From: Candidatus Omnitrophota bacterium
Lineage (GTDB): Bacteria; Omnitrophota; Gorgyraeia; JAHIPI01
Assembly: GCA_016783745.1 (NCBI GenBank)
Contig: JADHVZ010000004.1
Span: 3,544 to 67,543 of the forward strand
Reading direction: 5' to 3'
DNA length: 64,000 nucleotides
The notes under the pieces are model-generated. The model was not told where the DNA came from. It worked only from the letters and a program-made list of their open reading frames with translations, and did no database searches. A program made the translations under genes and the position numbers. This document shows positions 7,681 to 24,219 of this stretch, piece by piece (positions within the stretch are counted from its first letter, which is position 1; every line of letters starts with the position of its first letter).

Positions 7681-8725
7681 CGTACGGCTGTATAAAGGCG
7701 GCAGAATGTTTGTTTCTTATAAGCATATTTGTGATTATCAATCCGTTGATATAGGCAGGCTCAGGGGCAAGGGGAGTTATAAAACCTTGATGGAAAAAAG
7801 GGCCTACTTTTTAAAGATAGTCGGAGACAGGGATCAAAAAGTGAGAGGCGAATTTTTACAGGAGAGGCTTTGCCCTTTATGCGACGCGGACGATCATCGA
7901 TGTATTTTGGAAAAGGACGGCTTAAAAATAGTCAAATGCAGTAAGTGTGAAATGATCTATGTGAACCCGGTTTTAAGCACTGCCGCCCTGGAAAAGATAT
8001 ATAAACATGAAGATTATTCCGAAATAATGGAAAAGCTTCAGGGGGAATCCCATCAGTATAGAAAATCACGTTTCGGAAAAGAGCGGGTGGAAACGGTAAA
8101 AAGACTGCGGGATGATAGGCTGGATTTTAAAAAATGGCTGGATATAGGATGCAGTACCGGCTTTGTCTTAGAGGCCGCCAAGGAAGAGGGGTGGGATGCG
8201 GTAGGCGTAGAATTAAACCCCTATGCCGTACGGTTTGCCCGGGGGAGAGGCATAAAGGTCATCGACAGGGATTATCTGGGGATACGATTCGGCGAGTCCG
8301 AATTTTCGGAAATAACGATATTTGATGTTTTGGAGCATCTGCCGAATCCGAGTGATGTCCTGAGGAAGGCTTTTAAAGAATTAACCCAATACGGAGGCGT
8401 GTATATTTACGTACCGAACTGGGAATCCGCGAGTAGGATTTTAATGGGGGACGACGCCCATTTCATATGGCCTTCTCACCATTTGGCTTATTTTACCCCA
8501 TTTACCGTGACTAAGATGCTGGAAAGCATAGGCTTTGAAGTGATCCGCGTGGAGACTGAGGGCCTTGATATTTTTGATTATATCTGGTTTTTGAAAGATA
8601 GAGATAATGAAAAACCGGTTTCTTATTTGGAGGAAATAGCCGACAAGCTTCAATTTTTTATCAACGCGGGGCTTTACGGCAAGAATCTGAGGGTATACGC
8701 TAAAAAGACCGGTGGAAAAGGCTGA
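7673..8725 (+). CDS. class I SAM-dependent methyltransferase with N-terminal CxxC...CxxC zinc-ribbon (start ambiguous: TTG 7673, ATG 7706 or ATG 7790)
   Basis: 'CPLCDAD...CSKCEM' zinc ribbon. 'LDIGCSTGFVLEAAKEEGWDAVGVELNP' is motif I, and 'IFDVLEHLPNP' is motif II/post-I. Confidence 0.75.
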   Translation: MFNVRLYKGGRMFVSYKHICDYQSVDIGRLRGKGSYKTLMEKRAYFLKIVGDRDQKVRGEFLQERLCPLCDADDHRCILEKDGLKIVKCSKCEMIYVNPVLSTAALEKIYKHEDYSEIMEKLQGESHQYRKSRFGKERVETVKRLRDDRLDFKKWLDIGCSTGFVLEAAKEEGWDAVGVELNPYAVRFARGRGIKVIDRDYLGIRFGESEFSEITIFDVLEHLPNPSDVLRKAFKELTQYGGVYIYVPNWESASRILMGDDAHFIWPSHHLAYFTPFTVTKMLESIGFEVIRVETEGLDIFDYIWFLKDRDNEKPVSYLEEIADKLQFFINAGLYGKNLRVYAKKTGGKG

Positions 8726-9452
8726 TATGGAAAAGAACGCCAAGCGGGAAGTCTTAGCTGTTATTCCGGCGCGCGGCGGATCAAAGGGGATCCCGGGAAA
8801 GAATCTTACGCCTTTATGCGGAAGGCCGTTGATCCAATACACTATCGATGCCGCAAGAAGCAGCGCGTTTATCAGCCGCATTATCGTATCGAGTGATGAC
8901 GATGAGATAATCAGCCATTGCCAAAGGCAGAATATAGAGGCCCCCTTCAAGAGGCCCGCGGAATACGGCCGGGATGACGCGCCGATGATAGACGTGATCA
9001 GGCACGCGCTGTCATATTTAAAAAAAAATCAGGATTATAGCCCCGATTTCATAGTATTGCTCCAGCCGACTTCTCCTTTAAGGCAATCGAGGCATATTGA
9101 TGAGGCGCTGGAGGCTCTTATGCGCTCCGATGCCGATTCCGTGGTAAGCATCACGGAAGTGCCTCATAATTTCAATCCATACTCATTGATGAAGCTTGAA
9201 AACGGGCTTTTGAAACCGTTTCTTGATTATGACGAAAAAAACAACCAGAGGCAGAAAAAACCAAAATTTTACGCGCGAAACGGCGCCGCGATATACGCCT
9301 TTACCTATAGGTGCATAGCCGAAAAAGAGAGCATCTACGGGGATAAGATCCTGCCGTATTTTATGGGCAGGGACGAGTCTGTGGACATAGATTCGATCTT
9401 TGACCTGAAGTCGGCGGAAATATTATTGAATAAGAGAGAACGGATGCCATGA
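8712..9452 (+). CDS. acylneuraminate cytidylyltransferase-family CMP-sugar synthetase (NeuA-like), paralog 1
   Basis: 'VLAVIPARGGSKGIPGKNLTPLCGRPLIQYTID...LLQPTSPLR' is the CTP_transf_3 signature. Confidence 0.85.
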   Translation: MEKADMEKNAKREVLAVIPARGGSKGIPGKNLTPLCGRPLIQYTIDAARSSAFISRIIVSSDDDEIISHCQRQNIEAPFKRPAEYGRDDAPMIDVIRHALSYLKKNQDYSPDFIVLLQPTSPLRQSRHIDEALEALMRSDADSVVSITEVPHNFNPYSLMKLENGLLKPFLDYDEKNNQRQKKPKFYARNGAAIYAFTYRCIAEKESIYGDKILPYFMGRDESVDIDSIFDLKSAEILLNKRERMP

Positions 9453-10165
9453 TCTCTTTTTTAAAACCGTGGGTAAGGAATAAGGCGCAAAAAAAACTGG
9501 CCTCCCTTCCGGACGACAGAGGGATAAAGATGCTATTGCGCCTTGAGGCGCGGCTGTCTTCTTTGACGCTTGGGACGATAAAATTGGCGGAACGCTCAAG
9601 AGGGGGGATCCATCCCAAGCATTGGATCACGGATTTTGTGGGCTTCTTCCTGGACAACATCAATGCCTCCGATACGGTTCTTGAGATAGGATGCGCATAC
9701 GGGCACGTTGCCTCAAGGATAGCGGAGAAAGCCAAACATGTTACTGCCATTGACATCCGCCGGGACGCTATTGAAAAGGCCGGGCAGCAGTTCAACCGCA
9801 GCAATATCTCGTTTATCAGCGCTGACTTTTTTGATTTTACGGATGGAAGTAAATTTGATGTAGTGGTCATGTCCAATGTCCTGGAGCACATAGCGGACCG
9901 CGGGAGATTTTTGGAGAAAGCGGCCGTCTTAGGCGGGAAATTGCTTATACGCGTGCCGGCCTTTGACAGGGACTGGACGGTGCCTTATAAAAAGAAACTG
10001 GGCTTGGAATGGCGTTTAAACGATGGCCATGAAGTGGAGTATACGGAAGGCATGCTGAGAGATGAGCTTGGCCGCGCGGGCCTGTCCGTGAAATATCTAT
10101 GCTGTAAATGGGGTAACTATTGCTGCATAGCCGAGAAAAAAAGAGGCGATAACGGGCGATCATGA
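9449..10165 (+). CDS. class I SAM-dependent methyltransferase
   Basis: 'VLEIGCAYGHVASRIAEKAKHVTAIDIRRDAIEKA...FDVVVMSNVLEHIAD'. Confidence 0.75.
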   Translation: MISFLKPWVRNKAQKKLASLPDDRGIKMLLRLEARLSSLTLGTIKLAERSRGGIHPKHWITDFVGFFLDNINASDTVLEIGCAYGHVASRIAEKAKHVTAIDIRRDAIEKAGQQFNRSNISFISADFFDFTDGSKFDVVVMSNVLEHIADRGRFLEKAAVLGGKLLIRVPAFDRDWTVPYKKKLGLEWRLNDGHEVEYTEGMLRDELGRAGLSVKYLCCKWGNYCCIAEKKRGDNGRS

Positions 10166-11733
10166 ATATTATTTTTACAAGTTCGGGGATAGGCCTGAAG
10201 GTTTTTTATTCTATACTAAGAAGGATCAAAGATCCTCTGAAGGTCGAGAAGGCAGGGTTTTATGTAGCCCATTCGATGTACTATAGCCGTTTTGTCAAAG
10301 AACATCCCGATGTCGAATCTGACTATCAGGTAGTCAAAGAGTGGGAGATCCTGGAAAGGTCAAGAAAACTAAAGCCTGATCCTGAAAAAATCAGCGCCTA
10401 TGAAAAGGCCATCGGAAACCCTACCCTTTGGGAGCCTCTTGTATGCGATCGCAGGGTCTATCTGGGGAGGCGTTGTAAAGAGAAACAGGACTATCGCCCG
10501 TCGTTTACGCATGAGGGGATGCTGGGCATCCTTCAGGCGGCGCTGGAGGAGATCGAGGGCTTATTGGATAGAGTAAAGCCCGATCTTGTTTTTTCCCTGG
10601 ACCCTACTACGTTCGGGGATTATATCATGTATCTCTTTTGCAGGGCAAGGAACATACCTATGTTTTTTTTAAGGACAACAAAGATCAAGAACTACGTTGA
10701 ATTCAACGACGGCATGTTCGGCTGTTCCTCGCATATCTATAGGATGTTTCAGGAATATGAAAGAAATAACGCCTATGACAGGTGGGTAAAGGAAGCCGAA
10801 GCGTATCTGGAGGAAACTAGAAATAAGGATTCAAGGTATGAGGGGATGGTGCTTGTTTCACCCGAGAGAAAAAAAGAAGACCCGCCGGCCGGTATCGCGA
10901 GATCTCTCATAAGGGGATTGATGAGTGAGGCGGATTATCTCCTGAAATACAAGAGAGACAGCCACATCCCGGGTATCTTTATACCGTTCGCGTATCAAAA
11001 GTTTATTCTGCCTTTTAAGGCAAGGCTTCAACACCTGCGGTATTCGAGGTATTACGTGACAGAGAACAGGCTTGATTCCTTGAATTTCGCCTTTTATCCT
11101 CTCCAGTCTGAGCCGGAGATCTCGTCCTTGATCTGGGGTAAATCCTATATGAACCAGATAGAGACGATCAGAAATATTGCCCGAAGCCTTCCGGTTGGGA
11201 TGAAGCTTTTAGTAAAGGAACACCCCCGCGCCGTGGGGTATCGATCCTTCGGATATTACAAAAAGATTTTGCAAATACCTAATACCATGCTTATTTCTCC
11301 GTATGTAAAGGCGAGGCCTGTGATCAAGAGGGCTAAAGCCATTATTTCCATAGCTACTTTTGTGGCATTTGAGGCTGTAATACACAGGGTACCTTCGATA
11401 ATGCTGGGTGGGCCGCGGCCGTTTTCTATTTTACCGGATTCGATGATGCGTTACGTCCATAGCATGAATGACCTTGCCGCGGAGATCAACGGACTTTTAA
11501 GAGATTATGAATATAAAGAAAGGCCCCTCATTCATTATATCGCGGCTACCATGCGCGGGTCAGTGCCCGTTAATTACTTTACGACCATGTTAAAGAAGAA
11601 AAGCCGCTACGTTGGTTCAGCCAGCTGTGAATTTGAGGAGGAGATCGAGAAGTTGTCCCATTACACGATTCAAAGGGTCAAAGAAGTCATGGAAGCCAGA
11701 GAAGTTAAAGAAGCCAGAGAAGTGCTGTCATGA
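10162..11733 (+). CDS. KpsC/KpsS/LpsZ-like capsule-polysaccharide biosynthesis protein (GT-B-like, candidate ulosonic-acid transferase), paralog 1
   Basis: 523 aa. 'FAFYPLQSEPEISS...LLVKEHPRAVGY...AKAIISIATFVAFEAVIHRVPSIMLGG' gives an HP motif plus a GT-B C-terminal-type 'ST..EA....P' loop, as in beta-Kdo transferases and sialyltransferase-like GT-B enzymes. Motif-level only. Confidence 0.4.
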   Translation: MNIIFTSSGIGLKVFYSILRRIKDPLKVEKAGFYVAHSMYYSRFVKEHPDVESDYQVVKEWEILERSRKLKPDPEKISAYEKAIGNPTLWEPLVCDRRVYLGRRCKEKQDYRPSFTHEGMLGILQAALEEIEGLLDRVKPDLVFSLDPTTFGDYIMYLFCRARNIPMFFLRTTKIKNYVEFNDGMFGCSSHIYRMFQEYERNNAYDRWVKEAEAYLEETRNKDSRYEGMVLVSPERKKEDPPAGIARSLIRGLMSEADYLLKYKRDSHIPGIFIPFAYQKFILPFKARLQHLRYSRYYVTENRLDSLNFAFYPLQSEPEISSLIWGKSYMNQIETIRNIARSLPVGMKLLVKEHPRAVGYRSFGYYKKILQIPNTMLISPYVKARPVIKRAKAIISIATFVAFEAVIHRVPSIMLGGPRPFSILPDSMMRYVHSMNDLAAEINGLLRDYEYKERPLIHYIAATMRGSVPVNYFTTMLKKKSRYVGSASCEFEEEIEKLSHYTIQRVKEVMEAREVKEAREVLS

Positions 11734-12707
11734 AGAAGATCCTTATAACAGGCGGATGCGGGTTTATCGGAACGAATCTCATTGCCCGGCTGCTGAAGGA
11801 AAAAGACAGGCTGTTTATACGCGTTCTGGATAATCTGTCTGTTGGGACAGAAAAGGCGTTTGAGGACGTTTGCTCAGCTGATCCCGCTCCGGATGCGGAG
11901 CTTATCATAGGAGATATCCGCGATATTAAGGCCTGCATAAGGTGCTGTGAGGGGATTGATACTCTCGTGCATCTGGCCGCGGATACAGGAGTTGCCCCTT
12001 CCGTCGAAAATCCCCGCGTGGATATGGAAGTCAATGTCATCGGCACAGTCAATCTTCTAGAGGCGATGCGTGAGCGCGGAGTCGAAAGATTTATTTTCGC
12101 TTCAAGCGGAGCTCCGCTGGGTGAGGCCAAACTGCCGATCTGTGAGGAAAGCGCGCCAAAGCCGGTATCCCCGTATGGCGCAAGCAAACTGGCAGGGGAA
12201 GGATATTGTTCCGCGTATTATAGGACGTACGGCATAAAAACATTTACTTTGCGGTTCAGCAATGTGTACGGGCCGCGGTCTTTTCATAAGCAAAGTGTTG
12301 TCGCCAGGTTTATCAGGAGCGCGCTGGAAGGCAAGGCCATTGAGGTTTACGGCGATGGCAATCAGACGAGGGATTTCATACATGTTGATGACCTTGTTCA
12401 AGCAATAGTCCTGGCCGCCGGCGCAGAGGCCGGAGGAGAGGTTTTTCAGATAGCGACAAGCCGGGAAACAACTATAAGCGAGATAGCGTCACGTATTGAA
12501 AAGATAATCGAAGCGAAGGTAGGCATGACCACGGATATCGCTTATACCGGTTCCAGGCGCGGCGACGTAAGAAGAAATTTCTCAGATATTTCTAAGGCGA
12601 AGAAAATATTGGGGTTTGCCCCGTGTGTGGATTTGGCAGAGGGGCTGGAACGCACAGTCAACTGGTTTATCAGTGAGGGTGCCCCTATAGGAGAAAAAAG
12701 TGAGTAG
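11730..12707 (+). CDS. NAD-dependent sugar epimerase/dehydratase (extended SDR, GalE-like)
   Basis: 'KILITGGCGFIGTNL' Rossmann motif and 'YGASKLAGE' YxxxK catalytic dyad. Confidence 0.8.
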   Translation: MKKILITGGCGFIGTNLIARLLKEKDRLFIRVLDNLSVGTEKAFEDVCSADPAPDAELIIGDIRDIKACIRCCEGIDTLVHLAADTGVAPSVENPRVDMEVNVIGTVNLLEAMRERGVERFIFASSGAPLGEAKLPICEESAPKPVSPYGASKLAGEGYCSAYYRTYGIKTFTLRFSNVYGPRSFHKQSVVARFIRSALEGKAIEVYGDGNQTRDFIHVDDLVQAIVLAAGAEAGGEVFQIATSRETTISEIASRIEKIIEAKVGMTTDIAYTGSRRGDVRRNFSDISKAKKILGFAPCVDLAEGLERTVNWFISEGAPIGEKSE

Positions 12708-14094
12708 TAAAGCCGGTATAAAAGTAAGTGTTATAATAACCGCGCGTAATTACGGGCAATATCTCAGCCAGTGCATAGACAGCGTCCTTAGTCAGAAATA
12801 CACATTTTATGAGATCATAGCGGTAAACGACGGAAGTACGGACAATACCGCGGAGATACTCGAAGGTTATCGCGCAAAACACCCCGATAGAATAAAAGTA
12901 ATCACCCTGGCAGGCGCAGGGCTGGCGAAGGCATGCAACGCCGGTATACGGAATTCAAGCGGGGAATACATAATCCGGCTGGACGCCGACGATTATTTTG
13001 ACGAGAACATCCTGCTCGTAGAAGCGAATATCCTTGATAATAATCCGGATGTCCACCTTGTTTACACGGACTATTACCGGATCGACAAACACGGAGGGAT
13101 CATAGATTCATACCGCCTTCCCAAAGTGAATGACGAAGTAGAGCTTCTGGACAGAAGCCCTCTGGCTGGCGGCGCCATGTTCCGGCGGGAATGCTACGAG
13201 GCGATCGGCGGATATAGCGAGGAGCTGCGCTATCAGGAAGATTATGATTTTTGGATACGTTTCATAGATAGGTTTAAGGTATATAACGTAAACCTGCCCC
13301 TCATGTATTATCGCAGGCACAGCGCGAGCATGTCGAACAATTTCGATGAGCGGATGAAGGCGCGCCAGTATGTAAAGAAAAAGTTTGTGGATGAGAAAGG
13401 GTACCGAAAGAATAAAAAGATTTTTGCCGTTATTCCCGCTATGGGGCATTTCAGGGGCCACGAGAAACTGGCGCTTAGAAAGCTAAACGGCAGGCCTCTG
13501 ATCGCATATACGATCGAGCAGGCATTGAAAACAAAATTGATAGCCAGGGTAATCGTCTCGACAGAGGACGAAGAGGTAGCAAATACAGCGACGGAATTGG
13601 GAGCGGACGTTCCTTTTCTGCGGCCTCAGGAATTGGCCAGGACGAGCGTAGGTGTGGATGAGGTGCTGCGGCACATGGTCGGAGTGTGGCGGGAGAGTGG
13701 CGAAGCCGTACCCGATCTGATCGTAGTCCTGCCGTATATAGCTGTGTTTCAGAAAGAACGGCACATAACCGAAGCAATAGACACTGTTTTGCTTCATGAT
13801 ACTGACTCGGTCATAGGCGTAACGACCGACCTTACCTTTCATTGGAAGCCCGGTAAATACGGGTTGGAACCGGTCGGCTACCATAAGCGCCTGTTGAGAG
13901 AAGACAGGGAGACCGTTTATAAAGAAACCGCGTCGATCTATGTTCTAAAGACGGCAATAGTGGAGGCAGGCGGCTATCTGGGGGAACAAATAGGGCATAT
14001 TGAGATGTCCCTCCGAGACGCGTGGCGCATCCAGAGCGACTTTGATTTTTTGGTAGCTGAGAAGATATTGGAAGAGGCGGTATACAAAGAATGA
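12700..14094 (+). CDS. fusion protein: N-terminal GT2 glycosyltransferase plus C-terminal NeuA-like cytidylyltransferase module with a degenerate CTP-binding loop
   Basis: N-terminus 'VSVIITARNYGQYLSQCIDSVLSQ...AVNDGSTDNT...RLDADDYF' is a GT2 (DxD). The C-terminal half 'IFAVIPAMGHFRGHEKLALRKLNGRPLIAYTIEQAL...VIVSTEDEEV' aligns to 'IPARGGSKGIPGKN' of NeuA, but with R->M and G/S/K substitutions. Confidence 0.7.
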   Translation: MSSKAGIKVSVIITARNYGQYLSQCIDSVLSQKYTFYEIIAVNDGSTDNTAEILEGYRAKHPDRIKVITLAGAGLAKACNAGIRNSSGEYIIRLDADDYFDENILLVEANILDNNPDVHLVYTDYYRIDKHGGIIDSYRLPKVNDEVELLDRSPLAGGAMFRRECYEAIGGYSEELRYQEDYDFWIRFIDRFKVYNVNLPLMYYRRHSASMSNNFDERMKARQYVKKKFVDEKGYRKNKKIFAVIPAMGHFRGHEKLALRKLNGRPLIAYTIEQALKTKLIARVIVSTEDEEVANTATELGADVPFLRPQELARTSVGVDEVLRHMVGVWRESGEAVPDLIVVLPYIAVFQKERHITEAIDTVLLHDTDSVIGVTTDLTFHWKPGKYGLEPVGYHKRLLREDRETVYKETASIYVLKTAIVEAGGYLGEQIGHIEMSLRDAWRIQSDFDFLVAEKILEEAVYKE

Positions 14095-15086
14095 TGAAGA
14101 TGACCAGTCTTACGGATAAGACCGGGCTTAATGCCAGGCTCAGGAATGTCAGAAAGCGCGGTTTTAAACCGCGCTACTGGTGGTACCGTTTCAAGTGGAA
14201 TTATTATCCGCGATTGAGGCTGGCAAATCCAGTACCGCTCCACGTCGATATTGAATCCACGGATGCCTGTAATCTTAGATGCGCGATGTGTATACACGGC
14301 CAGGGCGGGGTAAAGGAGACCGGCTTCATCAAGCCCGAGCTTACTTATAAAGCGATCGACCAGTGCGCGGAGCTGGGTGTCTACTCGATAAAGTTCAACT
14401 ATCGCGGTGAACCTTTACTGCATAAAAACCTGGCGGATTTCGTGAAGTACGCTAAACAGAGGGGCATAATGGAGGTCCAGTTCAATACAAACGGCCTTCC
14501 CGTAAGCGAAGTTGAGATTGAAGCGTTGATAAAGGCAGGGCTCGACCGTATTATATTCTCGGTTGACGGCGCTAAGAAGGAAACGTATGAGAGGGTCCGA
14601 ATCGGCGGGAGTTATGAAAGATTACTTAAGAATATAGATACGTTTCTTGAAATCAAAAGAAGGGACGGTTTGAAGAAGCCTTTCATCCGGGTTCAGATGG
14701 TAAAAGATCCCGGAGGGGAAAAAGAGGCCAGGCAGTTTATAGAGTTCTGGACGCGGAAAGGCGTGGATAATATTGCGGTCATCAACAAGCAGGACAGGGA
14801 CAACAGGGGTGGCGCCCCGCTTAAAGACGGTAAAAGGCCCCTGGGCAGGACCTTCTGCGACCAGCCCTGGCAGAGGTTGGTTGTGACCAGGGACGGCAAG
14901 GTATTGATGTGCTGCGGAGATTGGTACAGAAAAACGGTAATAGGGGATTTAAATAAGGAAAGCTTGAAACAGATATGGCACAGTGAATTATTGAGAGGAC
15001 ATCGCTCTATGATCGCCAGAGGCCTTCTTGCGGATATCGCGGCCTGCAAGACCTGTTTCAGGCCGACAACATATAAGTGGGATTGA
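14091..15086 (+). CDS. radical SAM enzyme with C-terminal SPASM/twitch-type Cys-rich domain, paralog 1
   Basis: 'DACNLRCAMC' is CxxxCxxC, followed by a 'GEPLL' glycine-rich SAM motif. The C-terminal cysteines are 'CDQPWQRLVVTRDGKVLMCCGDW...CKTCF'. Confidence 0.85.
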   Translation: MMKMTSLTDKTGLNARLRNVRKRGFKPRYWWYRFKWNYYPRLRLANPVPLHVDIESTDACNLRCAMCIHGQGGVKETGFIKPELTYKAIDQCAELGVYSIKFNYRGEPLLHKNLADFVKYAKQRGIMEVQFNTNGLPVSEVEIEALIKAGLDRIIFSVDGAKKETYERVRIGGSYERLLKNIDTFLEIKRRDGLKKPFIRVQMVKDPGGEKEARQFIEFWTRKGVDNIAVINKQDRDNRGGAPLKDGKRPLGRTFCDQPWQRLVVTRDGKVLMCCGDWYRKTVIGDLNKESLKQIWHSELLRGHRSMIARGLLADIAACKTCFRPTTYKWD

Positions 15087-15087
15087 A

Positions 15088-16101
15088 GTGAATATAAAGG
15101 GACGTGAAATAAAGCCATATACGTCTATATTTGTGATCGCGGAAACGGCCTCAAGCCACGAAGGAAGGGTTGATATCGCCAAAAAGATGGCCGATGCCGC
15201 AGCCGCAGCGGGAGCCGATGCCATTAAGTTTCAGATGCTGGATGCCGACAGCCTGCTTGTGCCGGGGCATCATAAATATAAAAGCTTCAAAGAGATCCAA
15301 TTTTCGGAGCGGGAGTGGAGGGACATCATTGCTTATGCCAGGTCCACAGGATTATGCATTATTGCCGAGATATTTGACGATAAGAGCTTTGTGCTGGCCG
15401 AGCAGTTGAATATTGATATCTACAAGGTTCCTACTTCGGACCTGACAAATCCGTTCCTACTGTCCGGCATGGCGGCCAGTGGAAAGTTTGTCATTCTATC
15501 AGTCGGCTCTGCCACAGAAGCCGAAATCGAGTTCGCGGTTAAGGCGTTCGAGTCTAAAGGTAATAAAAATTTAGCCTTGATGCACGGTTTTCAAAACTTT
15601 CCGACAAAAATCGAGGATACGAAATTCAGACTTCTGGACTTTTTGAAGAGAAGGTACCCCTACTATATAGGGTTCGCGGATCATGTAGACGCGGAAAGCG
15701 AACTCGCGCTGGTTTTGCCGGCGGCCGCAATCGGATACGGGGCGAGTATTATCGAAAAACATATCACCTTGGACCGCTCCTTAAAAAAGAGGGATTATTA
15801 TTCGGCGCTTGATCCCCGGGAATTTTCCCGCATGGTGGGCCTGATAAGGGGCGTTGAGAAGGCATACGGTTCTCCGGGGTCAGGGCATTCTCCCGCGGAG
15901 GCCGCATACAGGAAATTAATGAAGAAAAAGATAGTCGCGGGCCGCAATATCGCAAAAGGGCAGATGATCCGCATGGAAGATATTATGTTTAGAAGGACGG
16001 ACGAAGACGGTTTGATCCCTGGCGAATATCAAAAGATCTTGCGGCAGGCAAAAAAAATTATGCCCGAGTATTCCGTGATAAGGGAAGAAGATGTCGATTA
16101 A
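15088..16101 (+). CDS. NeuB-family (non)ulosonic acid synthase, paralog 2 (start reassigned to GTG 15088, immediately after the upstream stop)
   Basis: 'IFVIAETASSHEGRVDIAKKMADAAAAAGADAIKFQM...LSVGSATEAEIEFAV...' plus a C-terminal SAF-like 'KKIVAGRNIAKGQMIRMEDIMFRR'. The ORF-track start 15028 overlaps the upstream gene, and GTG 15088 gives an N-terminus matching the paralogs. Confidence 0.8.
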   Translation: MNIKGREIKPYTSIFVIAETASSHEGRVDIAKKMADAAAAAGADAIKFQMLDADSLLVPGHHKYKSFKEIQFSEREWRDIIAYARSTGLCIIAEIFDDKSFVLAEQLNIDIYKVPTSDLTNPFLLSGMAASGKFVILSVGSATEAEIEFAVKAFESKGNKNLALMHGFQNFPTKIEDTKFRLLDFLKRRYPYYIGFADHVDAESELALVLPAAAIGYGASIIEKHITLDRSLKKRDYYSALDPREFSRMVGLIRGVEKAYGSPGSGHSPAEAAYRKLMKKKIVAGRNIAKGQMIRMEDIMFRRTDEDGLIPGEYQKILRQAKKIMPEYSVIREEDVD

Positions 16102-16855
16102 TCCAAAAATAGTCAGTTTGGTCGCCGTGAGGATGAAGTCCGTCAGGCTTCCGGGCAAGGCGCTGCTGCCTCTGTGCGGCAGGCCTGTTCTATGGCATTT
16201 GATGGGCCGCATTCTAAGGGCAAGGCTTCCCGGTAAGGCAGTCATCTGCACTTCGACACTTGAAGAAGACGATCCTATCGAGACATTCGCCGAACAGAAT
16301 GATTTCGACCTTTTTAGGGGGCATCCGGATAACGTCCTGCTGCGTTTTGCGGAGGCCGGCGAAAAATACAGAGCCGGACATATCGTAAGAATAACAGGAG
16401 ACAACCCCCTTACGGATCCGTACCTTATCGATGAGATGGCACGGCTTCACATCGCGGAACAGGCAGATTATACCTTTACGGAGGATCCGCCGCGGGGCAC
16501 AAGGCCCGAGATCATCTCGATGGCGGCAATAAAAAGGTGCCTGGAGCTGGCGGAAGAACCCGACAACAGCGAGTACATGACGCTATATTTCAAAGATTAC
16601 CCCGGGGTATTCAGGAATATAAAATATTCATGCCCTCAGAGCTATTGCCGCCCGGATTACCTGGTAACAATTGATACGCCGGAAGATCTTGAGGTTGTAA
16701 AAAGAATCTATTCCTCTCTCTACAACAAAAATAATGAATTCACATTAAGAGAGGTTATAGATTTTTTAGATTCAAGACCTGAGATCGATCACGCCGGCAG
16801 AATAAATGACCCGGCAGAATCGTTTAAAGTGAATACAGGACTTAAGGCGCTATGA
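16091..16855 (+). CDS. CTP_transf_3 cytidylyltransferase of the SpsF/PseF-like subtype (CMP-ulosonic acid synthetase)
   Basis: 'IVSLVAVRMKSVRLPGKALLPLCGRPVLWHLM...ITGDNPLTDPYLIDEMARLH' has the P-loop R...K(S)xRLPGK typical of PseF/SpsF-like cytidylyltransferases. Confidence 0.7.
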   Translation: MSINPKIVSLVAVRMKSVRLPGKALLPLCGRPVLWHLMGRILRARLPGKAVICTSTLEEDDPIETFAEQNDFDLFRGHPDNVLLRFAEAGEKYRAGHIVRITGDNPLTDPYLIDEMARLHIAEQADYTFTEDPPRGTRPEIISMAAIKRCLELAEEPDNSEYMTLYFKDYPGVFRNIKYSCPQSYCRPDYLVTIDTPEDLEVVKRIYSSLYNKNNEFTLREVIDFLDSRPEIDHAGRINDPAESFKVNTGLKAL

Positions 16856-17595
16856 AGGCATTATGCGTGATCCCGGCCAGAGGCGGCTCTAAAGGCATAC
16901 CGGGTAAGAATATCAGGCTGGTGGACGGCAAGCCGCTGATCGGGTTTGTCATCGAAGCTGTCGTGCGATCGGGTGTTTTTGATAAGGCTATTGTATCAAC
17001 GGACTCGGCAGAGATAGCGGATATCGTCAATAGATATTATCCCGAAATCGATGTACCTTTTATCAGGCCCGCAGAACTTGCCGGGGATGATGTGCCTGTT
17101 ACGGCAGTGATAAAACACGCTGTTGATTTTTATGAAAAAGAAGATTTTGGACTCGTATTTTCAGTACAGTCGACAAACCCATTTACGAGGCCTGAGACAT
17201 TGACCGGCATGCTGGATATCATGAATGGGGATAAGTGTGATTCTATAGTGACCATTGCAAAAATACTTCATTTGCATCCGTTTCGTTCTTACCGGTACGA
17301 CTCAGAGACGATGCGGATCTCCCCGCTTACGCAGTACACAAAGGAGTTATTTCTGCAGAAGCAGGACAGGCCGGACGCTTACGGCTTGACCGGCGGAGTA
17401 CTTGGCCGCAGATCTCGATTGATCAAAGAGTGGGCCGGCAAAGGACTTGCCCTCGGAGAAGATCAACGGGGATATGTGGTCCAAGAGGAAGAGGCATTTG
17501 ACCTGGATACGCCTTTTGAGATGAACCTCTTTGAGAGCTTGATTTCCGCCAGAAGCGCAAAGGCAGCCATGGCAATGGAGGAAGGCCGACGATGA
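16852..17595 (+). CDS. NeuA-like cytidylyltransferase, paralog 2
   Basis: 'ALCVIPARGGSKGIPGKNIRLVDGKPLIGFVIEAV'. Confidence 0.85.
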   Translation: MKALCVIPARGGSKGIPGKNIRLVDGKPLIGFVIEAVVRSGVFDKAIVSTDSAEIADIVNRYYPEIDVPFIRPAELAGDDVPVTAVIKHAVDFYEKEDFGLVFSVQSTNPFTRPETLTGMLDIMNGDKCDSIVTIAKILHLHPFRSYRYDSETMRISPLTQYTKELFLQKQDRPDAYGLTGGVLGRRSRLIKEWAGKGLALGEDQRGYVVQEEEAFDLDTPFEMNLFESLISARSAKAAMAMEEGRR

Positions 17596-18626
17596 AAGGC
17601 CTGAAGTTATATTCGACTACCGGAAGAAAGCATCTATATCTGCTGAATGAAGAAACAGACCGTATAATGGTGGATGCTGTCGGCAGAGAATACCTGAAAT
17701 ACAGAGAGATATGGGAGAAGGTCACAAAGGCAGAGCTGGAGCCCGATTTTCCGCCGCAGATCGATTTTGAGCTTAGTACCACTTGCAACTATTTTTGCCC
17801 CATGTGCCCGGCGGAACTGCGGGCGCCCGGCTCAAAAATGAAATGCATGGATTATTCATTATATACAAAGGTATTGAGCGACGGTTTTAAAAATGGGCTG
17901 AAATCCGTGGAATTAAATTATGTAAATGAGCCCCTTATGCTGAGGGACATAGCAAGATTCATCTCATACGCAAGGGAGGCCGGCGCTTTGGATGTACTTC
18001 TCAATTCAAACGGGAGCCTCTTGACAGAGGAGATGTCCGAAAAAATCATCTCAGCCGGCCTGACCAAGCTCTCGATATCCCTTGAGGCGGTAACCGAAGC
18101 TACATACGGCAAAATAAGGTACGGAGGAAATTTCGGCAAAGTCGTCAATAACGTCTTAAAATTTATTGAAATCAGAAAGGCTATGGGGAAGAGATTACCG
18201 TTACTCAAGCTGACGTATCTCATGACTAAGGTGAATGTCCATGAGTTCGACGAATATATCGAATACTGGAAGGACAAGGCCGATCTGATCTCTATTCAAA
18301 ACCTCACTAACCCGCTTGAGGGAGAACGCCGGCAAAAACTAGAAGACCTTTTCGCCATAGACGGTATCAAATTAGATTCCGACGAAGCCTTCAAGTGTGT
18401 CTTGCCGCTGCAAAGAATGGTGGTGAGGCATGACGGTACTGTTTTGGCCTGCTGCCATTTCAGGGGGATCGGACTTGTTCTCGGAAACGTAAAAGAACAG
18501 AACATAGTTGATATTTATCACAGCGGTTTTGCCGCAAGGATAAGACGGCTATTAATGGCCGGGGAATATGCAAAGATACCTGTCTGTAAGAGGTGCGTTG
18601 AGAATTCCCGGCTGGCAAATTACTGA
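17592..18626 (+). CDS. radical SAM enzyme with SPASM/twitch-type domain, paralog 2
   Basis: 'TTCNYFCPMC' is CxxxCxxC, followed by 'NEPLM'. The C-terminal cysteines are 'CVLPLQRMVVRHDGTVLACCHFRG...CKRC'. Same architecture as 14091-15086. Confidence 0.85.
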   Translation: MKGLKLYSTTGRKHLYLLNEETDRIMVDAVGREYLKYREIWEKVTKAELEPDFPPQIDFELSTTCNYFCPMCPAELRAPGSKMKCMDYSLYTKVLSDGFKNGLKSVELNYVNEPLMLRDIARFISYAREAGALDVLLNSNGSLLTEEMSEKIISAGLTKLSISLEAVTEATYGKIRYGGNFGKVVNNVLKFIEIRKAMGKRLPLLKLTYLMTKVNVHEFDEYIEYWKDKADLISIQNLTNPLEGERRQKLEDLFAIDGIKLDSDEAFKCVLPLQRMVVRHDGTVLACCHFRGIGLVLGNVKEQNIVDIYHSGFAARIRRLLMAGEYAKIPVCKRCVENSRLANY

Positions 18627-18653
18627 CCGATCGAATTATTTTTTATGTGAGGT

Positions 18654-19664
18654 ATGATGAATACCGCCCGAAATCACAAGATCTACGTTATCGCGGAAAT
18701 CGGCAGCAACCATAACGGCGATTTCGCCAAGGCCAGGGAGATGGTGTCTGCCGCGAAAGAAGCAGGCGCCGATGCCGTAAAATTCCAGACTTATATACCC
18801 GAAAAACTGTGCCACTCCTCTCAAGCACCGCTCCCCATCTTAAAAGATAGATATAAGAATCAGCAGGAACGGTTCCGAGAACTCACATTCACGGAACCGC
18901 AATACCGCGAACTGAAGGCCCTTGCCGATAAGCTGGGAATAGATTTTGCCTCCTCGCCTTTTGATATTGAGAGCGCGCTTATGCTGGAGCCCCTTGTGTC
19001 TTTTTACAAAATCGCCTCGGGAGATATAAACAATGTACAGCTTATAGATAGGGTCGCAAGGACGGGTAAGTCAGTTCTCATATCTACCGGCATGTCGACG
19101 CTTGAAGAGGTTGACAGGATCTATCAAAGTGTTGACCATAATAAACTGGCAATACTTCACTGTGTCTCGTTATATCCGGCGGACGGGGATAAGCTTAATT
19201 TGATGACCATACCCTTCCTAAAAGAGAGATATCCTGATATTGCGATCGGATATTCAGACCACCATCCGGGTATCGATGCCTGTTTATATGCGGCGGTTCT
19301 GGGGGCACAGATTATCGAGAAGCATTTTACGTTTGATAAGTCTATTTGCTACGGAGACCATGCGCTATCGGCAGATTACCGGGATATGCGCCGAATGGCG
19401 AGGGAGATAAAAGCGATTTCCGGGATGCTCGGCCAAAAAGATTTTCGTCACGGCGAAGAGGAATTACAAAACCGGCGTTTCTTCAGACGCGGATTGTACA
19501 CTGCCCGCGAATTGAATGCGGGCGAGAAGATTCGGCCAAGCGATATCGTGCCGCTCCGGCCGCCTGCTTCAATCAATATTTACGAGATTGAAAAAGTGAT
19601 AGGCATGACCGTGAAGCGCCCTTTAGAAAAAGAGACACCCATCTCATGGGAAGACCTGGAATAG
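18654..19664 (+). CDS. NeuB-family (non)ulosonic acid synthase, paralog 3, with SAF domain
   Basis: 'KIYVIAEIGSNHNGDFAKAREMVSAAKEAGADAVKFQTY...ISTGMSTLEEVDRIY...SDHHPG' plus a C-terminal SAF-like 'RGLYTARELNAGEKIRPSDIVPLRP'. Confidence 0.85.
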   Translation: MMNTARNHKIYVIAEIGSNHNGDFAKAREMVSAAKEAGADAVKFQTYIPEKLCHSSQAPLPILKDRYKNQQERFRELTFTEPQYRELKALADKLGIDFASSPFDIESALMLEPLVSFYKIASGDINNVQLIDRVARTGKSVLISTGMSTLEEVDRIYQSVDHNKLAILHCVSLYPADGDKLNLMTIPFLKERYPDIAIGYSDHHPGIDACLYAAVLGAQIIEKHFTFDKSICYGDHALSADYRDMRRMAREIKAISGMLGQKDFRHGEEELQNRRFFRRGLYTARELNAGEKIRPSDIVPLRPPASINIYEIEKVIGMTVKRPLEKETPISWEDLE

Positions 19665-19678: not shown

Positions 19679-20953
19679 ATGATAATTTTTATCCTAAGAC
19701 GCTATAACGATATAGACCATATGGTGCCGGTTATCTATAAAACAGCAATGAATAAAGATGTGCCTATCGCGGCTTTGTGCATTGAGCCGACCTACGATAT
19801 CGCTTCCGACAGCCGTTTGAAATTCCTCAGAGAAAAGTGCGGGGTAAGGGTCGACTATATCTACAGGTTTTATCAGCCATCTTTGCTTCATAAGCTGGTT
19901 TCGCGGATGATCTGCGTAAGTGGCAAAAATTTATTTACTAAAATTTATCTCAGATTCTTCCAGAAATGGGTTTATGATGGGATCGCCAAGCCGTTTTTCT
20001 TTAACCGGAGATGGACAGAAGCGTTTTACAGGAATAAGGGGGTCACTATCGCCGTCTTCGATTACGCGAAGCTCCATCAATCTATTATCGGGGTTCTCAT
20101 GAAAGCCGCCCGGGCTTGTAACGTGCGGACTATTGCGATACCCCACGGCTTGAAAATATGGTCTAGTGAATCGATCAACGGTGATAGTGACAACACCATA
20201 AAGGGTTTTCACGAGCTGCTGCCATTCGATCATTTTATTTTAAGCAATAATCTATCAAAAGACATATATTATTACGAGGGCAAAGGAATGCCGGCTGAGA
20301 AAATGCGCGTTATAGGAAGCGCCAGATATTGCCCGGAGTGGAATAGGATGTGCCGGGAGATATACCCGGAATACAGGCAGCAACGGACTAAAAACGGAAA
20401 AAAACTCAAGGTTGTATATTTCGAGGGCGGAGATAGGTTTGTCCGCAGTAACGATATGATCATAAGAACTTTGAAGTCGATCAACAATTTGGAATTCGTG
20501 GATATGGTCGTGCAGCCGAGGACAAGGAGCGGCAGCCTGTCTTTTAATGAAATGAGAGGCTCTATGAACATTAATTCTGCCGTTCCGGCATACAGCCTTT
20601 GCAGATGGGCCGACGTTGTTATAGTGGGCATAACAAGCGTGTTCATGGAGGCCTTTTGCCAGGGCAAGACGGTGATTTTTCCGAAATATCTGCATACCAG
20701 GCCTACTATATTCGAAGAGAGGAAGGTAGGCTGGGTCATTGATAGCTATGATGAGCTTGAAAACGCCTTGAGGATTCTAAGGGGTAACCCGAGGTACAGG
20801 CCCTATTCCGAAGAAGATATGGAAAGTTTCTTTACTGAAATAGTCGAAGGCGGAGTAAGAAAACGCGATGTATTAAGCGGTTACAAGGATTTTATTTTAT
20901 CCTTAAACCGCCGGTATCCGGAGGAGAAAAAGATAGAATATGCCAGCGTCTAA
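19679..20953 (+). CDS. GT-B-fold protein of unknown specificity (TagF/PseG/KpsS-like C-terminal Rossmann motif), paralog 2 of candidate ulosonic-acid transferases or UDP-sugar hydrolases
   Basis: 424 aa. 'LKVVYFEGGDRFV...WADVVIVGITSVFMEAFCQGKTVIFPKY' resembles the GT-B C-terminal donor-binding loop. No stronger signature was seen. Confidence 0.35.
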   Translation: MIIFILRRYNDIDHMVPVIYKTAMNKDVPIAALCIEPTYDIASDSRLKFLREKCGVRVDYIYRFYQPSLLHKLVSRMICVSGKNLFTKIYLRFFQKWVYDGIAKPFFFNRRWTEAFYRNKGVTIAVFDYAKLHQSIIGVLMKAARACNVRTIAIPHGLKIWSSESINGDSDNTIKGFHELLPFDHFILSNNLSKDIYYYEGKGMPAEKMRVIGSARYCPEWNRMCREIYPEYRQQRTKNGKKLKVVYFEGGDRFVRSNDMIIRTLKSINNLEFVDMVVQPRTRSGSLSFNEMRGSMNINSAVPAYSLCRWADVVIVGITSVFMEAFCQGKTVIFPKYLHTRPTIFEERKVGWVIDSYDELENALRILRGNPRYRPYSEEDMESFFTEIVEGGVRKRDVLSGYKDFILSLNRRYPEEKKIEYASV

Positions 20954-22089
20954 AAAGAACAATAAATTGGTGAATGATCTGGAATTGCTCAAGATCATGT
21001 TGGGAGATATGCAGAATGCCCCGGGACTTTTCCAGCCCACAAGCTTCTGGAGATACCATGAAAGATATCATGTTCCGTGGCTTAAGAGTTCCGATTTGAA
21101 TAATTTCAGGAGCATAGCCGGCGGCGGAAACAGTAGTTTCGGAGCCAATTTTTACGGGCACTATCCCTTTGATCCTGTGACGATCGAAAAAATGCCTCAC
21201 TCCGTACGGGCGATGGGGAATATCATTAATAGGTTTTCGCGGCATATAAAGCCCCTCATGTTTTTTAACCCGGAGATCGTCTCTCTACTGTACCGCCGGC
21301 TGCGAAAGACACAGAAGATGCTTGAAAATCTTGCGTATTATTCTGCCGGATTGATCGACGGAGACGGGACCTTGGGCAGGATCGAAGATTCGGGATTGGG
21401 AAATCCGACCGATCTGATAATTATCGACGGGAAAAAATATACCAATGTGTTTTTAAAGTATTTTTCGCAATACGTTTACGCGAAGAAGTTTATCGATTTT
21501 AACGGCATAAAAAGCATTTTTGGAGATCGGCTCCGGATACGGCGGACAGGCAGAGATGTTATTAAAGGCACACCCGCATCTTAATATTTGCGTTATTGAT
21601 ATTCCTCCGCAGTTGTATGTTACCGAGCAATACCTAAGCGCCTGTTTCAAAGGACAAGTGTGCGGCTATAGAGCCTTGAGGGGGATGAATAAGATAGGGC
21701 GTGATATTTTTGATAAATACAGCATTGTAGCCCTGGCGCCGTGGCAGTTAGACTATATTGACGGTGTATCCTTCGATTTATTCTGGAATTCCGCGTCTTT
21801 TCAGGAGATGGAGCCCCCGGTAGTGGAAAATTACGCAAAATATATACAAAAGATGGTTTCAAAATGGCTTTATCTGCGAAACCAGCCGGATGGAAGTTCT
21901 ATAGTGGAGGGCCGGAAGAAAAACGTGGAGGCGCAAACCCGCATGGAGCACTATGTGAAGTTTTTCTCTGATTTTGAGCTTGTTGACCGAAGTCCTTCAA
22001 AAGTGATTCCTAATATTGCCTCAGGCGAAAGATATGACAACATGATTTTCAGGCGGAAGGCGCCTAAGGGCGGGGAGCGCGAAACATGA
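20940..22089 (+). CDS. putative sugar O-methyltransferase (class I SAM MTase) interrupted by an apparent +1 frameshift near 21511-21522
   Basis: ORF-track pieces 20940-21584 and 21520-22089 lie in adjacent frames. The second opens right after an in-frame TAA at 21508 and begins with MTase motif I 'FLEIGSGYGGQAEMLLKAHP'. The first encodes an N-terminal domain ('FQPTSFWRYHERYHVPW...NFYGHYPF') of the kind seen in sialic-acid-cluster O-methyltransferases. The junction sits in A5/T5 homopolymers (ggcataaaaagcatttttgg). Confidence 0.55.
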
Positions 22090-22583
22090 TCGATAAGGAT
22101 CAGTTAGTTTTAAGGTTGAAAAAAATCAAGCTTGTAGCCCTGGATGTGGATGGCGTGCTTACGGACGGGCGGGTTTATTTAGATGCCGACGGCCGGGAAA
22201 CACGGGCCTTTAATTTCAAGGATATCATGGGCATATCCCGCCTAAAAAAAAGAGGCGTCAAGGTAGCGTTAATATCGGGAGAAAAAAACGCTGTTATTGA
22301 CCGGTTCTGCCGGAAGCTCGGCATAGAAAAAAACTATCAGAACTGCAGGGAAAAGGATAAGGCTATTGATGAGCTCACGGATTATTACAAGCTGAAGCCA
22401 GAGGATATATGTTTCATAGGTGATGATATTAATGATATCCCCGTTTTTAAGAAGGTAGGCCTGGCCGTAGGCGTGTCCAACGGCTGGGAAGGTATAATGG
22501 GCAGCGCGCATATAGTTACGAAAAATAAAGGGGGAAACGGCGCTGTCAGGGAGATTTGCGAGTTAATCATAGCTAACATATGA
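22086..22583 (+). CDS. HAD-superfamily KdsC/YrbI-type phosphatase (3-deoxy-ulosonate 8/9-phosphate phosphatase)
   Basis: 'LVALDVDGVLTDGRVYLDADGRE...FIGDDINDIPVFKKVGLAVGVSNG' carries HAD motif I DxDGVLTDG and motif IV GDDxND at KdsC-like size (165 aa). Confidence 0.8.
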   Translation: MIDKDQLVLRLKKIKLVALDVDGVLTDGRVYLDADGRETRAFNFKDIMGISRLKKRGVKVALISGEKNAVIDRFCRKLGIEKNYQNCREKDKAIDELTDYYKLKPEDICFIGDDINDIPVFKKVGLAVGVSNGWEGIMGSAHIVTKNKGGNGAVREICELIIANI

Positions 22584-22593
22584 GGATCGCGTT

Positions 22594-23382
22594 ATGAAAG
22601 TTTTGTGTGTGATTCCTGCCCGCGGCGGCTCGAAGACTGTGCCAAAAAAGAACCTGGTGGAAATAGGCGGAAAATCGCTGCTTTATTACGCGGCGGAATG
22701 CGTGAAAAACTCGAAGGTTATTGAGCGGACAGTGCTTTCAACTGATTCCGGCGAGATAGCCGCGCAGGCCCGGTCTTTGGGGCTGGAAGTCCCGTTTATG
22801 CGGTCGGCGGAATTGGCCACGGACGAGACTACGGATTGGCCCGTTTTCAACCATTGCATGGAATGGCTGAAAGATAATGATAGATATGTTCCTGATATTG
22901 TTGTCCATTTGCGGGTGACTTCACCTTTTGCTTTTAAAATGCACGGTGGACCGACAGGCGATTTTTCACGTAATTGGATATGCGTCAAAAGAGAAGAGAT
23001 CATAGATGGGGTTGTAAATATGCTGGCTGAGAGGCCGGAACTAGATTCTGTGAGGACTGTAGAACTTGTCCGGAGTACGCCTTATAAAATGTGGCGTATG
23101 GAGGGAGGAGTAATAAAGCCTGTTATCCGGACAAGCGAAAAAGAGATCTATAATCAGCCCAGGCAAAAGATACCGCCGGCCTACCTCCAGAACGGGTATG
23201 TGGACGCGGCGCGTTATTCAACTATTATGCGAAAGAAATCAATGAACGGCGAAACAATAGGCGGCTACGTGCTCGATTGCGATTATTTTGTGGACATTGA
23301 CGGATATGCCGATATTGAACTGGGAGATCTGATCTACCGCCAGCTTATGGAGGAGGAGAGCGTAGATGAGTATAAAAGATAA
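22594..23382 (+). CDS. NeuA-like cytidylyltransferase, paralog 3
   Basis: 'VLCVIPARGGSKTVPKKNLVEIGGKSLLYYAAE'. Confidence 0.8.
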   Translation: MKVLCVIPARGGSKTVPKKNLVEIGGKSLLYYAAECVKNSKVIERTVLSTDSGEIAAQARSLGLEVPFMRSAELATDETTDWPVFNHCMEWLKDNDRYVPDIVVHLRVTSPFAFKMHGGPTGDFSRNWICVKREEIIDGVVNMLAERPELDSVRTVELVRSTPYKMWRMEGGVIKPVIRTSEKEIYNQPRQKIPPAYLQNGYVDAARYSTIMRKKSMNGETIGGYVLDCDYFVDIDGYADIELGDLIYRQLMEEESVDEYKR

Positions 23383-24193: not shown

Positions 24194-24219
24194 GGATTAC
24201 GTAGGGAAATGCCGGGTTA

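Follow-up and report, generated by a model that had tools for sequence, protein, structure and literature searches.

Positions 11730–19664 of a 64,000-nucleotide stretch of DNA from a Candidatus Omnitrophota bacterium (the whole stretch is called the window below) are best read as a single copy of an ancient and widespread module for ulosonic acid biosynthesis, with what appear from sequence comparison to be two anciently diverged NeuB synthases. Among its genes is one for a radical S-adenosylmethionine (SAM) enzyme, here called rSAM1, which is predicted to be a twitch-type, BtrN-like carbohydrate enzyme and which very probably tailors a sugar as part of a ulosonate pathway. We draw on domain content, conservation of gene order, natural gene fusions, the relationship of rSAM1 to BtrN and a linkage to ulosonate genes that is specific to one paralog, all of which are direct observations.

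NeuB-family synthases condense phosphoenolpyruvate (PEP) with an aldose to give a 3-deoxy-2-ulosonic acid. Sialic-acid-like sugars shape surface charge, recognition by phage and host, and flagellar assembly; to our knowledge, the known pathways to them use only tailoring steps that depend on NAD, pyridoxal phosphate or acyl-CoA. A conserved radical SAM step would bring new chemistry to ulosonate biosynthesis, be it oxidation, epimerisation or a change in the carbon skeleton, without oxygen or NAD. Sugars tailored by radical SAM enzymes are familiar, and so are ulosonate pathways, but the two in conserved combination are apparently undescribed. Full-text searches of a literature library returned no paper that ties radical SAM enzymes to nonulosonic acids (NulOs), in keeping with the view of a first-pass annotation of this DNA that no such pathway had been described, and radical enzymes are not mentioned in a paper on the NulOs of Leptospira or in one on the phylogeny of NulO synthases. 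The rSAM1 family amounts to some 7,500 clusters and spans abundant uncultured lineages (Pelagibacteraceae (SAR11), Nitrospira, Omnitrophota, Patescibacteria and DPANN archaea). A function for it would point to roles for the ‘radical SAM/SPASM domain-containing proteins’ that stand unannotated in glycan loci and for the spiro-SPASM orphans, and could account for unassigned nonulosonic and higher-carbon ulosonic acids in environmental glycomics.

Gene order and linkage to ulosonate genes

The genes of the module lie on the + strand, as do the other ulosonate sets, the DegT-like gene and the other small radical SAM genes described below. The module opens with a short-chain dehydrogenase/reductase (SDR) of 325 residues (11730–12707), nucleotide-sugar 4,6-dehydratase/epimerase-like, which matches Pfam Epimerase and GDP_Man_Dehyd over its full length; its top NCBIfam matches are dTDP-glucose 4,6-dehydratase (206 bits) and LegB (162 bits), both under cutoff. 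It is followed by a 464-residue fusion, GT2::CTP_d (12700–14094), of Pfam Glycos_transf_2 (residues 10–213) to a C-terminal CTP_transf_3 domain (residues 258–313), the PseF model covering residues 243–376. Next come rSAM1 (14091–15086; 331 residues; Pfam Radical_SAM and SPASM), with one auxiliary-cluster or ‘twitch’ domain, and NeuB_b (15088–16101; 337 residues; Pfam NeuB), a PEP-aldol ulosonate synthase. The latter most likely starts at the GTG at 15088, one base past the rSAM1 stop codon; a longer open reading frame (ORF) opens at 15028. There follow CTP_b (16091–16855; 254 residues), a KdsB-like cytidylyltransferase assigned from Pfam CTP_transf_3 and weak KdsB-subfamily matches, the PseF-like cytidylyltransferase CTP_c (16852–17595; 247 residues; CTP_transf_3), a second twitch-type radical SAM enzyme, rSAM2 (17592–18626; 344 residues; Radical_SAM and SPASM), and the second synthase, NeuB_c (18654–19664; 336 residues; Pfam NeuB and SAF). 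Between 12700 and 19664, the genes abut or overlap by 4–11 nt, and the widest gap is 27 nt.

A genome scan, with each species represented once, returned 196 relatives of rSAM1, and 79 loci, taken from the best 80, were examined. Of the 79, 36 have a NeuB gene no more than 300 bp from the radical SAM gene; the count rises to 52 at 3 kb and to 59 at 10 kb, and about half of the loci without NeuB end just downstream of the radical SAM gene. A CTP_transf_3 gene occurs within 3 kb in 44 loci, two or more NeuB genes are present in 41, and orthologs of the SDR lie within 10 kb in 40, directly adjoining in 14. The order that recurs is rSAM, NeuB (~335 residues), CTP_b (~255), GT2::CTP (~462), an optional further CTP unit and a second NeuB (~352). 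Orthologs of NeuB_b and of CTP_b were each counted in 48 loci, those of NeuB_c and of CTP_d each in 35; NeuB_b orthologs usually stand directly after the radical SAM gene, and NeuB_c orthologs are the second synthase of the module. At five loci, the place directly after the radical SAM gene is taken not by NeuB but by a gene of the DAHP_synth_1 family (KDO8P/DAHP-synthase-like), which suggests that the constant partner is PEP-aldol ulosonate chemistry, drawn from two synthase families. The first-pass annotation had proposed that the radical SAM genes are paired with NeuB and cytidylyltransferase genes; this neighbourhood census bears it out for rSAM1 in other genomes, some of which carry the partners as natural fusions.

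The carriers are diverse. Among bacteria they include Pelagibacteraceae, Rhodospirillaceae, Nitrospira, Omnitrophota, NC10, Desulfomonile, Geobacter, Arcobacteraceae, Cloacimonadota, Pirellulales, Scalindua, Patescibacteria, Margulisiibacteriota, Elusimicrobia, Acidobacteriota, Actinomycetota and Acetobacterium; the archaeal carriers include Woese-, Aenigmat-, Had- and Undinarchaeota and Methanosarcinales. In Acetobacterium wieringae, a cultured acetogen (NZ_JAIPPU010000002.1), the rSAM1 relative stands directly after a set running from NeuB to NeuC and CTP_transf_3.

The window itself provides an internal control in rSAM3 (39186–40115), a radical SAM enzyme with Pfam Radical_SAM and SPASM domains and seven C-terminal cysteines. 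Among 80 metagenome loci (the best 80) with rSAM3 relatives, none has NeuB adjoining, and of the 28 long ones (at least 8 kb) three have it within 10 kb; the comparison of NeuB adjacency, 36 of 79 for rSAM1 against 0 of 80 for rSAM3, gives a Fisher p value of 6e-14. Since the rSAM1 family adjoins NeuB and the control family does not, the linkage is real, well outside chance, and specific to the paralog. The proposal of a repeated pairing thus holds for rSAM1 and fails for the genes at 39186 and 40134, which form a conserved pair of their own, partnered by Asn-synthase-like and DegT genes, and in other genomes hardly ever have NeuB nearby; the same control census rules out rSAM3 and rSAM4 (40134–41111; twitch-type; Radical_SAM and SPASM) as part of the NeuB system. 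It appears from sequence and context that these two belong to a separate conserved module for amino-sugar tailoring: relatives of rSAM3 are 63–74% identical across phyla and conserve the seven C-terminal cysteines, rSAM4 adjoins them in 37 of the 80 loci, and the long loci have an Asn-synthase-like gene in 24 of 28 and DegT within 10 kb in 23 of 28. The pair recurs in locus L088, and the module is also present in L087, the cultured Desulfohalovibrio reitneri. In the window, the region 38058–46278 holds a DegT/PseC-like aminotransferase directly upstream of rSAM3 (38058–39185; Pfam DegT_DnrJ_EryC1 408 bits; PseC 350 bits against a cutoff of 423), rSAM3, rSAM4, an SDR, an ATP-grasp::methyltransferase fusion, a hexapeptide acyltransferase and the Asn-synthase-like gene.

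The module normally has one radical SAM gene, and rSAM2 is an accessory in a subset of loci. The rSAM2 family is smaller than that of rSAM1 (at E ≤ 1e-10, a word-index search gives 73 proteins for rSAM2 and 586 for rSAM1); in the five contexts seen for it, CTP_transf_3 is present in all five, NeuB in three and a class-I methyltransferase immediately downstream in four.

Fusions of neighbouring genes point the same way. NeuB_b is fused to CTP_b in 10 loci and to CTP_b, GT2 and CTP_d in one protein in three more (L023, L024 and L044), 13 together. An exhaustive profile search with the rSAM1 family gave 7,535 clusters (50% identity) at E ≤ 1e-30, and among the top matches are two proteins in which the radical SAM domain, of rSAM1 type, is joined to ulosonate enzymes, namely a NeuB_c-type NeuB with SAF (P0452) and a CTP_b-type unit (P0358). 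Other fusion partners among the top matches are a D-2-hydroxyacid dehydrogenase (P0385), an FkbM methyltransferase (P0339) and a second radical SAM domain in tandem; each of the P-numbered proteins is a single metagenomic representative. Such fusions supply an order of steps that is concrete and testable. D-2-hydroxyacid dehydrogenase genes also recur unfused in related loci (L085, at 11933–12895, and cluster c30 in L054, L067, L070 and L072), a hint that certain variants may reduce the ulosonate at its 2-keto group.

The architecture of P0358, and that of the neighbouring genes in the window, resembles spiro-SPASM, the curated NCBIfam subfamily TIGR04321, in which a CTP-like N-terminal part is followed by a radical SAM/SPASM C-terminal part: CTP_b matches positions 89–150 of the 510-position model and the radical SAM proteins match 215–505. 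It differs in that spiro-SPASM is one polypeptide, whereas the window has separate genes for the CTP and radical SAM parts whose products fall below the family cutoff, the best score being that of rSAM3 at 113.6 bits against 250. No paper mentioning spiro-SPASM or TIGR04321 turned up in full-text literature searches.

Relationship of rSAM1 to BtrN

There are five small SPASM/twitch radical SAM genes in the window (starting at 14091, 17592, 39186, 40134 and 63380), and all five proteins match PF04055 with more than 29.5 bits, over the gathering threshold. Aligned as the first-pass annotation had proposed, the paralogs match from end to end, with the CxxxCxxC motif and the auxiliary-cluster cysteines conserved; a CNLxCxxC motif is invariant both in this alignment and in 39 orthologs of rSAM1. 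The invariant cysteines of rSAM1 in these orthologs are C60, C64 and C67, and C256, C274, C275, C319 and C322. The label SPASM/twitch stands insofar as PF13186 scores above its cutoff; only rSAM3 has the seven C-terminal cysteines of the strict, two-cluster SPASM motif, CX9-15GX4C ... CX2CX5CX3C ... C, and the motif is absent from rSAM1 and rSAM2 (five each) and rSAM4 (four). With four to five C-terminal cysteines, rSAM1, rSAM2 and rSAM4 have room for one auxiliary cluster, the arrangement termed ‘twitch’.

BtrN (PDB 4M7T) is the 2-deoxy-scyllo-inosamine dehydrogenase of butirosin biosynthesis, the prototype of the twitch radical SAM enzymes, and oxidises an aminocyclitol. A profile built from the 39 sequences finds it as the top PDB match (E = 1.6e-26), with both domains aligned and the next match at least 10 orders of magnitude weaker. 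The auxiliary ligands C169, C187, C232 and C235 of BtrN align to C256, C274, C319 and C322 of rSAM1, and the spacing is identical (C-x17-C-x44-C-x2-C). A Foldseek search with an AF2 model (pLDDT 89.5) likewise places 4m7t first (E = 1e-15), followed by BlsE, with DesII among the matches. BtrN is thus the best solved relative by both profile and fold, as the suggested comparison had anticipated. The two are alike in the CxxxCxxC motif, the four auxiliary cysteines, small size and a setting of carbohydrate-like small molecules. They differ in that BtrN belongs to an aminoglycoside cluster, with 2-deoxy-scyllo-inosose synthase and BtrS as the context that defines its functional family, and rSAM1 to NeuB/cytidylyltransferase surface-glycan clusters, five of which include a 3-dehydroquinate (DHQ)-synthase-like gene. 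The rSAM1 family also adds ~48 N-terminal residues, an extra invariant cysteine and many invariant Arg and Lys residues, namely R33, K101, R105, K122, R153, R170, R200, R262 and R305; these basic residues, we infer, would suit an anionic substrate. None of the five radical SAM proteins reaches any NCBIfam cutoff.

Other small twitch or related radical SAM enzymes that act on sugars or nucleotide sugars are the cytosylglucuronate decarboxylase BlsE (7VOB), DesII and the HygY/NeoN epimerases, which set a precedent for oxidation, epimerisation, decarboxylation or deamination of such substrates; the family model for BlsE gives 44.7 bits against a cutoff of 400. All of these are from antibiotic pathways, and we know of none in the biosynthesis of ulosonic acids or surface glycans.

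The DHQ-synthase-like (sugar-phosphate cyclase) gene lies ~3.5–6 kb from the radical SAM gene in loci L057, L060, L062, L063 and L075, which are versions of the module from Margulisiibacteriota, Saganbacteria and some alphaproteobacteria. Its presence near a BtrN-like enzyme is intriguing, as the cyclitol of BtrN comes from a DHQ-synthase-like cyclase. An aminotransferase adjoins the radical SAM gene in L020, L022, L061, L066 and L172 and at 38058/39186 in the window, an arrangement that can be likened to BtrS beside BtrN.

Proposed chemistry and its alternatives

The suggestion that this is a new sugar-tailoring system is supported insofar as the radical SAM enzyme is tied to genes for ulosonate synthesis and activation and not to those for peptide maturation; the substrate, the regiochemistry and the choice of dehydrogenation over other radical outcomes we infer. 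A BtrN-like dehydrogenase mechanism within a cytidine monophosphate (CMP)-ulosonate surface-glycan module is, in our judgement, an even call. In this scheme, rSAM1 would cleave SAM reductively, and the 5'-deoxyadenosyl radical would take a hydrogen atom from a sugar carbon that bears a hydroxyl group. The fusions CTP::rSAM and NeuB::rSAM tip the balance slightly towards an ulosonic acid or its CMP ester as the substrate; the alternative is a nucleotide-hexose precursor, which stays a candidate because of the 4,6-dehydratase-like SDR upstream. The auxiliary cluster would accept an electron to give a keto sugar, as in BtrN, which might then be re-reduced or epimerised, or transaminated where DegT adjoins. 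The outcome would be tailoring that needs neither oxygen nor NAD, ahead of CMP activation and transfer. The GT2 domain could be a CMP-sugar transferase or, by analogy with PseG, the missing sugar-releasing hydrolase.

The canonical NulO and Kdo pathways (NeuC-NeuB-NeuA; PseB/C/H/G/I/F; LegB/C/H/G/I/F; KdsA/KdsC/KdsB) share with the window the PEP-aldol synthase, CTP_transf_3, the KdsC-type phosphatase and the 4,6-dehydratase-like SDR. The module differs from them in its radical SAM enzyme, its two synthases, its two to three cytidylyltransferase units and GT2::CTP, and almost always lacks a sugar-releasing enzyme of NeuC, LegG or PseG type.

Several points weigh against this reading. The identity of rSAM1 to BtrN is ~23%, its N-terminus is ~48 residues longer, and the decarboxylase BlsE is the next-best fold match; with the low identity, this leaves the type of reaction unfixed. 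An extra invariant cysteine shared by rSAM1 and rSAM2 stands beside the second auxiliary ligand (a ‘CC’ motif), and could, as a hydrogen-atom donor, favour an epimerase over a dehydrogenase. Only 5 of the 79 loci have DegT within 3 kb of the radical SAM gene, so that the core is mostly without an aminotransferase, and the scheme does not account for the presence of two synthases and three cytidylyltransferase units. The four NeuB proteins of the window (NeuB_a to NeuB_d, of which the first and last lie outside the module) score 357.7, 216, 284 and 247 bits with the NeuB/NnaB model TIGR03569 (cutoff 399.65) and 266, 171, 238 and 194 bits with the PseI model TIGR03586 (cutoff 340.25); CTP_c, CTP_d and CTP_a reach 114.6, 81 and 148 bits with the PseF model TIGR03584 (cutoff 205.7), and CTP_b 50 bits with the KdsB-subfamily model (cutoff 193). 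At the family level, all four NeuB proteins match PF03102, and CTP_b, CTP_c and CTP_d match PF02348. Because no NeuB or CTP unit of the module attains an NCBIfam equivalog cutoff, the products are, strictly speaking, neither Neu5Ac nor Pse nor Kdo. It should be noted, too, that the census used crude ORF calling, phmmer with references derived from the window and the best 80 of 196 genome matches, and that every functional step is drawn from homology and gene context.

The cysteine is at the centre of one alternative, that rSAM1 and rSAM2 are sugar epimerases in which a cysteine returns hydrogen on the opposite face of the sugar. Twitch-type radical SAM epimerases (HygY/NeoN) set the precedent. 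Such an enzyme would supply the manno-type aldose that normally comes from NeuC, or would create stereoisomeric ulosonic acids; the first role is of interest because NeuC-type hydrolysing 2-epimerases are found within 10 kb in just 2 of the 79 loci, so that another source of the aldose is needed. C275, beside the auxiliary ligand C274, is invariant in the rSAM1 orthologs and present in rSAM2, and is found neither in BtrN, which has Phe there, nor in rSAM4. However, C275 is a candidate donor by analogy with the donor cysteine of HygY/NeoN only, the NeuB::rSAM fusion P0452 has a single cysteine at the ‘CC’ site, and the extra residue might be a spare cluster ligand; we regard the epimerase as possible, though on balance unlikely. 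A different and improbable scheme would use the two synthases in series. NeuB_b (or the KDO8P-synthase-like enzyme) and CTP_b would make a CMP-ulosonate, the radical SAM enzyme would decarboxylate or fragment it to an aldehyde, and NeuB_c would extend the aldehyde with PEP to a higher-carbon (C10–C12) ulosonic acid. The rSAM1-type fusions to CTP_b-type (P0358) and NeuB_c-type (P0452) partners and the fusion of NeuB_b to CTP_b fit the order NeuB_b, CTP_b, rSAM, NeuB_c, and BlsE, the second-best fold match, is a radical SAM decarboxylase. Nevertheless, the scheme rests on fusion topology, and no case in which a 2-ulosonate is decarboxylated by radical chemistry is known to us. CMP-activated C10 ulosonic acids with two N-acetyl groups and no assigned genes, not linked here to the module, have been reported in Magnetospirillum gryphiswaldense (bioRxiv 10.64898/2026.04.20.719630). 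These could stem from a heptose or from C-methylation by B12-radical SAM enzymes, which are near in 18 of the 79 loci. If serial extension were true, the module would be the genetic basis of the C10-or-longer CMP-ulosonic acids seen by mass spectrometry.

Two further alternatives concern the nature of the locus. The first-pass annotation saw a duplicated cassette, in which the triad of CMP-transferase module, radical SAM gene and NeuB gene occurs twice, and this might reflect a recent tandem duplication with redundant or slightly diverged function. The ORFs it named are present by ORF calls and Pfam, including those at 39186 and 40134 and the 3'-partial one at 63380, and the domain types do repeat in order; it overlooked the KdsB-like CTP_b gene (16091–16855) between the triads, and the cytidylyltransferase domain at 12700, although real, is just the C-terminal half of the GT2 fusion. 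A recent duplication is very improbable and was rejected, as the paralogs are merely 21–36% identical (rSAM1 and rSAM2 29%, NeuB_b and NeuB_c 31%; within the window 23–32% for the five radical SAM proteins, 29–36% for the four NeuB proteins and 21–34% for the CTP units), each has orthologs of its own in distant phyla, and 41 of the 79 loci repeat the composite arrangement with its two NeuB genes. The closest relatives, L004 and L049 (60–62% identity), read GT2::CTP, rSAM, NeuB, CTP, CTP, NeuB, with two NeuB genes and a single radical SAM gene, while L084 matches the gene order of the window, rSAM2 included. Since the closest relatives carry one radical SAM gene and the paralogs are separately orthologous, the ‘two triads’ are better taken as one composite module with an accessory paralog. 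Harder still to sustain, and for rSAM1 in effect refuted, is the idea of radical SAM enzymes that mature peptides or proteins (of ribosomally synthesised and post-translationally modified peptide (RiPP), sactipeptide or anSME type) and merely happen to lie inside a glycan operon. They do have a Pfam SPASM domain and weak NCBIfam matches to many maturase families, and a Sulfatase-domain protein is encoded at 56546–57715. All these maturase matches are nevertheless far under their cutoffs; gaps of at most 27 nt in 12700–19664 leave no space for a precursor gene, Pfam finds no RRE or PqqD domain, and it is sugar enzymes that recur as neighbours and fusion partners. The anSME match in the PDB search has E = 7e-6 against 1.6e-26 for BtrN, and the sulfatase-like protein carries SSPST, not C/S-x-P-x-R. 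An identity as anSME was itself rejected, on the single-cluster cysteine pattern of rSAM1, rSAM2 and rSAM4 and on a sulfatase-like protein without the target motif.

The wider glycan cluster

The window is almost wholly one operon on the + strand, and the cluster runs on past its end. It holds four NeuB genes (5474, 15088, 18654 and 26345) and five CTP_transf_3 units, together with a KdsC-family phosphatase, a bona fide NeuC, a Wzz-like protein, an ABC exporter and a PMT_2 glycosyltransferase; a Bac_transf initiating transferase is located beyond the window end, on sister contigs. The synthases, the Wzz-like protein, the exporter, PMT_2 and Bac_transf point to a cluster for a lipid-linked surface glycan.

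Besides the module, a classical set of NeuB_a, NeuC, methyltransferase and CTP_a, assigned with NCBIfam, occupies 5474–9452 and has no radical SAM gene; its NeuC scores 362.6 bits, over the cutoff of 235.9. A KdsC-family ulosonate-phosphate phosphatase (22086–22583; TIGR01670 148.6 bits, over the cutoff of 106.95) precedes a fourth ulosonate set, assigned from Pfam and NCBIfam (22594–27214): CTP_e, an SDR, a xylose-isomerase-like TIM barrel, a Gfo/Idh/MocA oxidoreductase and NeuB_d. The make-up of this set (22086–27214 with the phosphatase) is unusual, and NeuB_d has 289 residues and no SAF domain.

The window has three B12-radical SAM genes (starting at 31827, 33293 and 49005, and spanning 31827–34744 and 49005–50165), and rSAM5 is immediately followed by a fourth, just outside the window (sister contig L169, 12116–13618), so that one glycan cluster holds nine radical SAM genes, four B12-binding and five SPASM/twitch. 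The B12-radical SAM enzymes may be sugar C-methyltransferases. The fifth small gene, rSAM5 (63380–64000; Pfam Radical_SAM), is present as the 5' part of a radical SAM/SPASM gene of 323 residues; on the sister contigs, the full gene is followed by the B12-radical SAM gene, a methyltransferase and, further on, Bac_transf.

An ATP-sulfurylase, a pyruvate kinase homolog and a sulfatase-fold protein are encoded inside the glycan operon at 53783–57715. The pyruvate kinase homolog is odd beside four PEP-consuming synthases; it may have to do with PEP supply, or with sulfating or phosphorylating the glycan. Immediately upstream of the cluster, 99–3104 encodes a protein of 1001 residues with He_PIG, Big_9, cadherin-like and LamG domains, perhaps a protein of the cell surface that might itself be glycosylated. 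Among the ulosonate genes, ORFs of 189–523 residues at 10162–11733, 19679–22089, 27211–28764 and 60764–62224 have no Pfam match. Related loci have recurring unannotated families of 560–660 residues (c11, c21 and c22, and c7, which is weakly Glyphos_transf-like) and Pfam LIC12162; with the unmatched ORFs of the window, the 560–660-residue and LIC12162 families are candidate ulosonate transferases.

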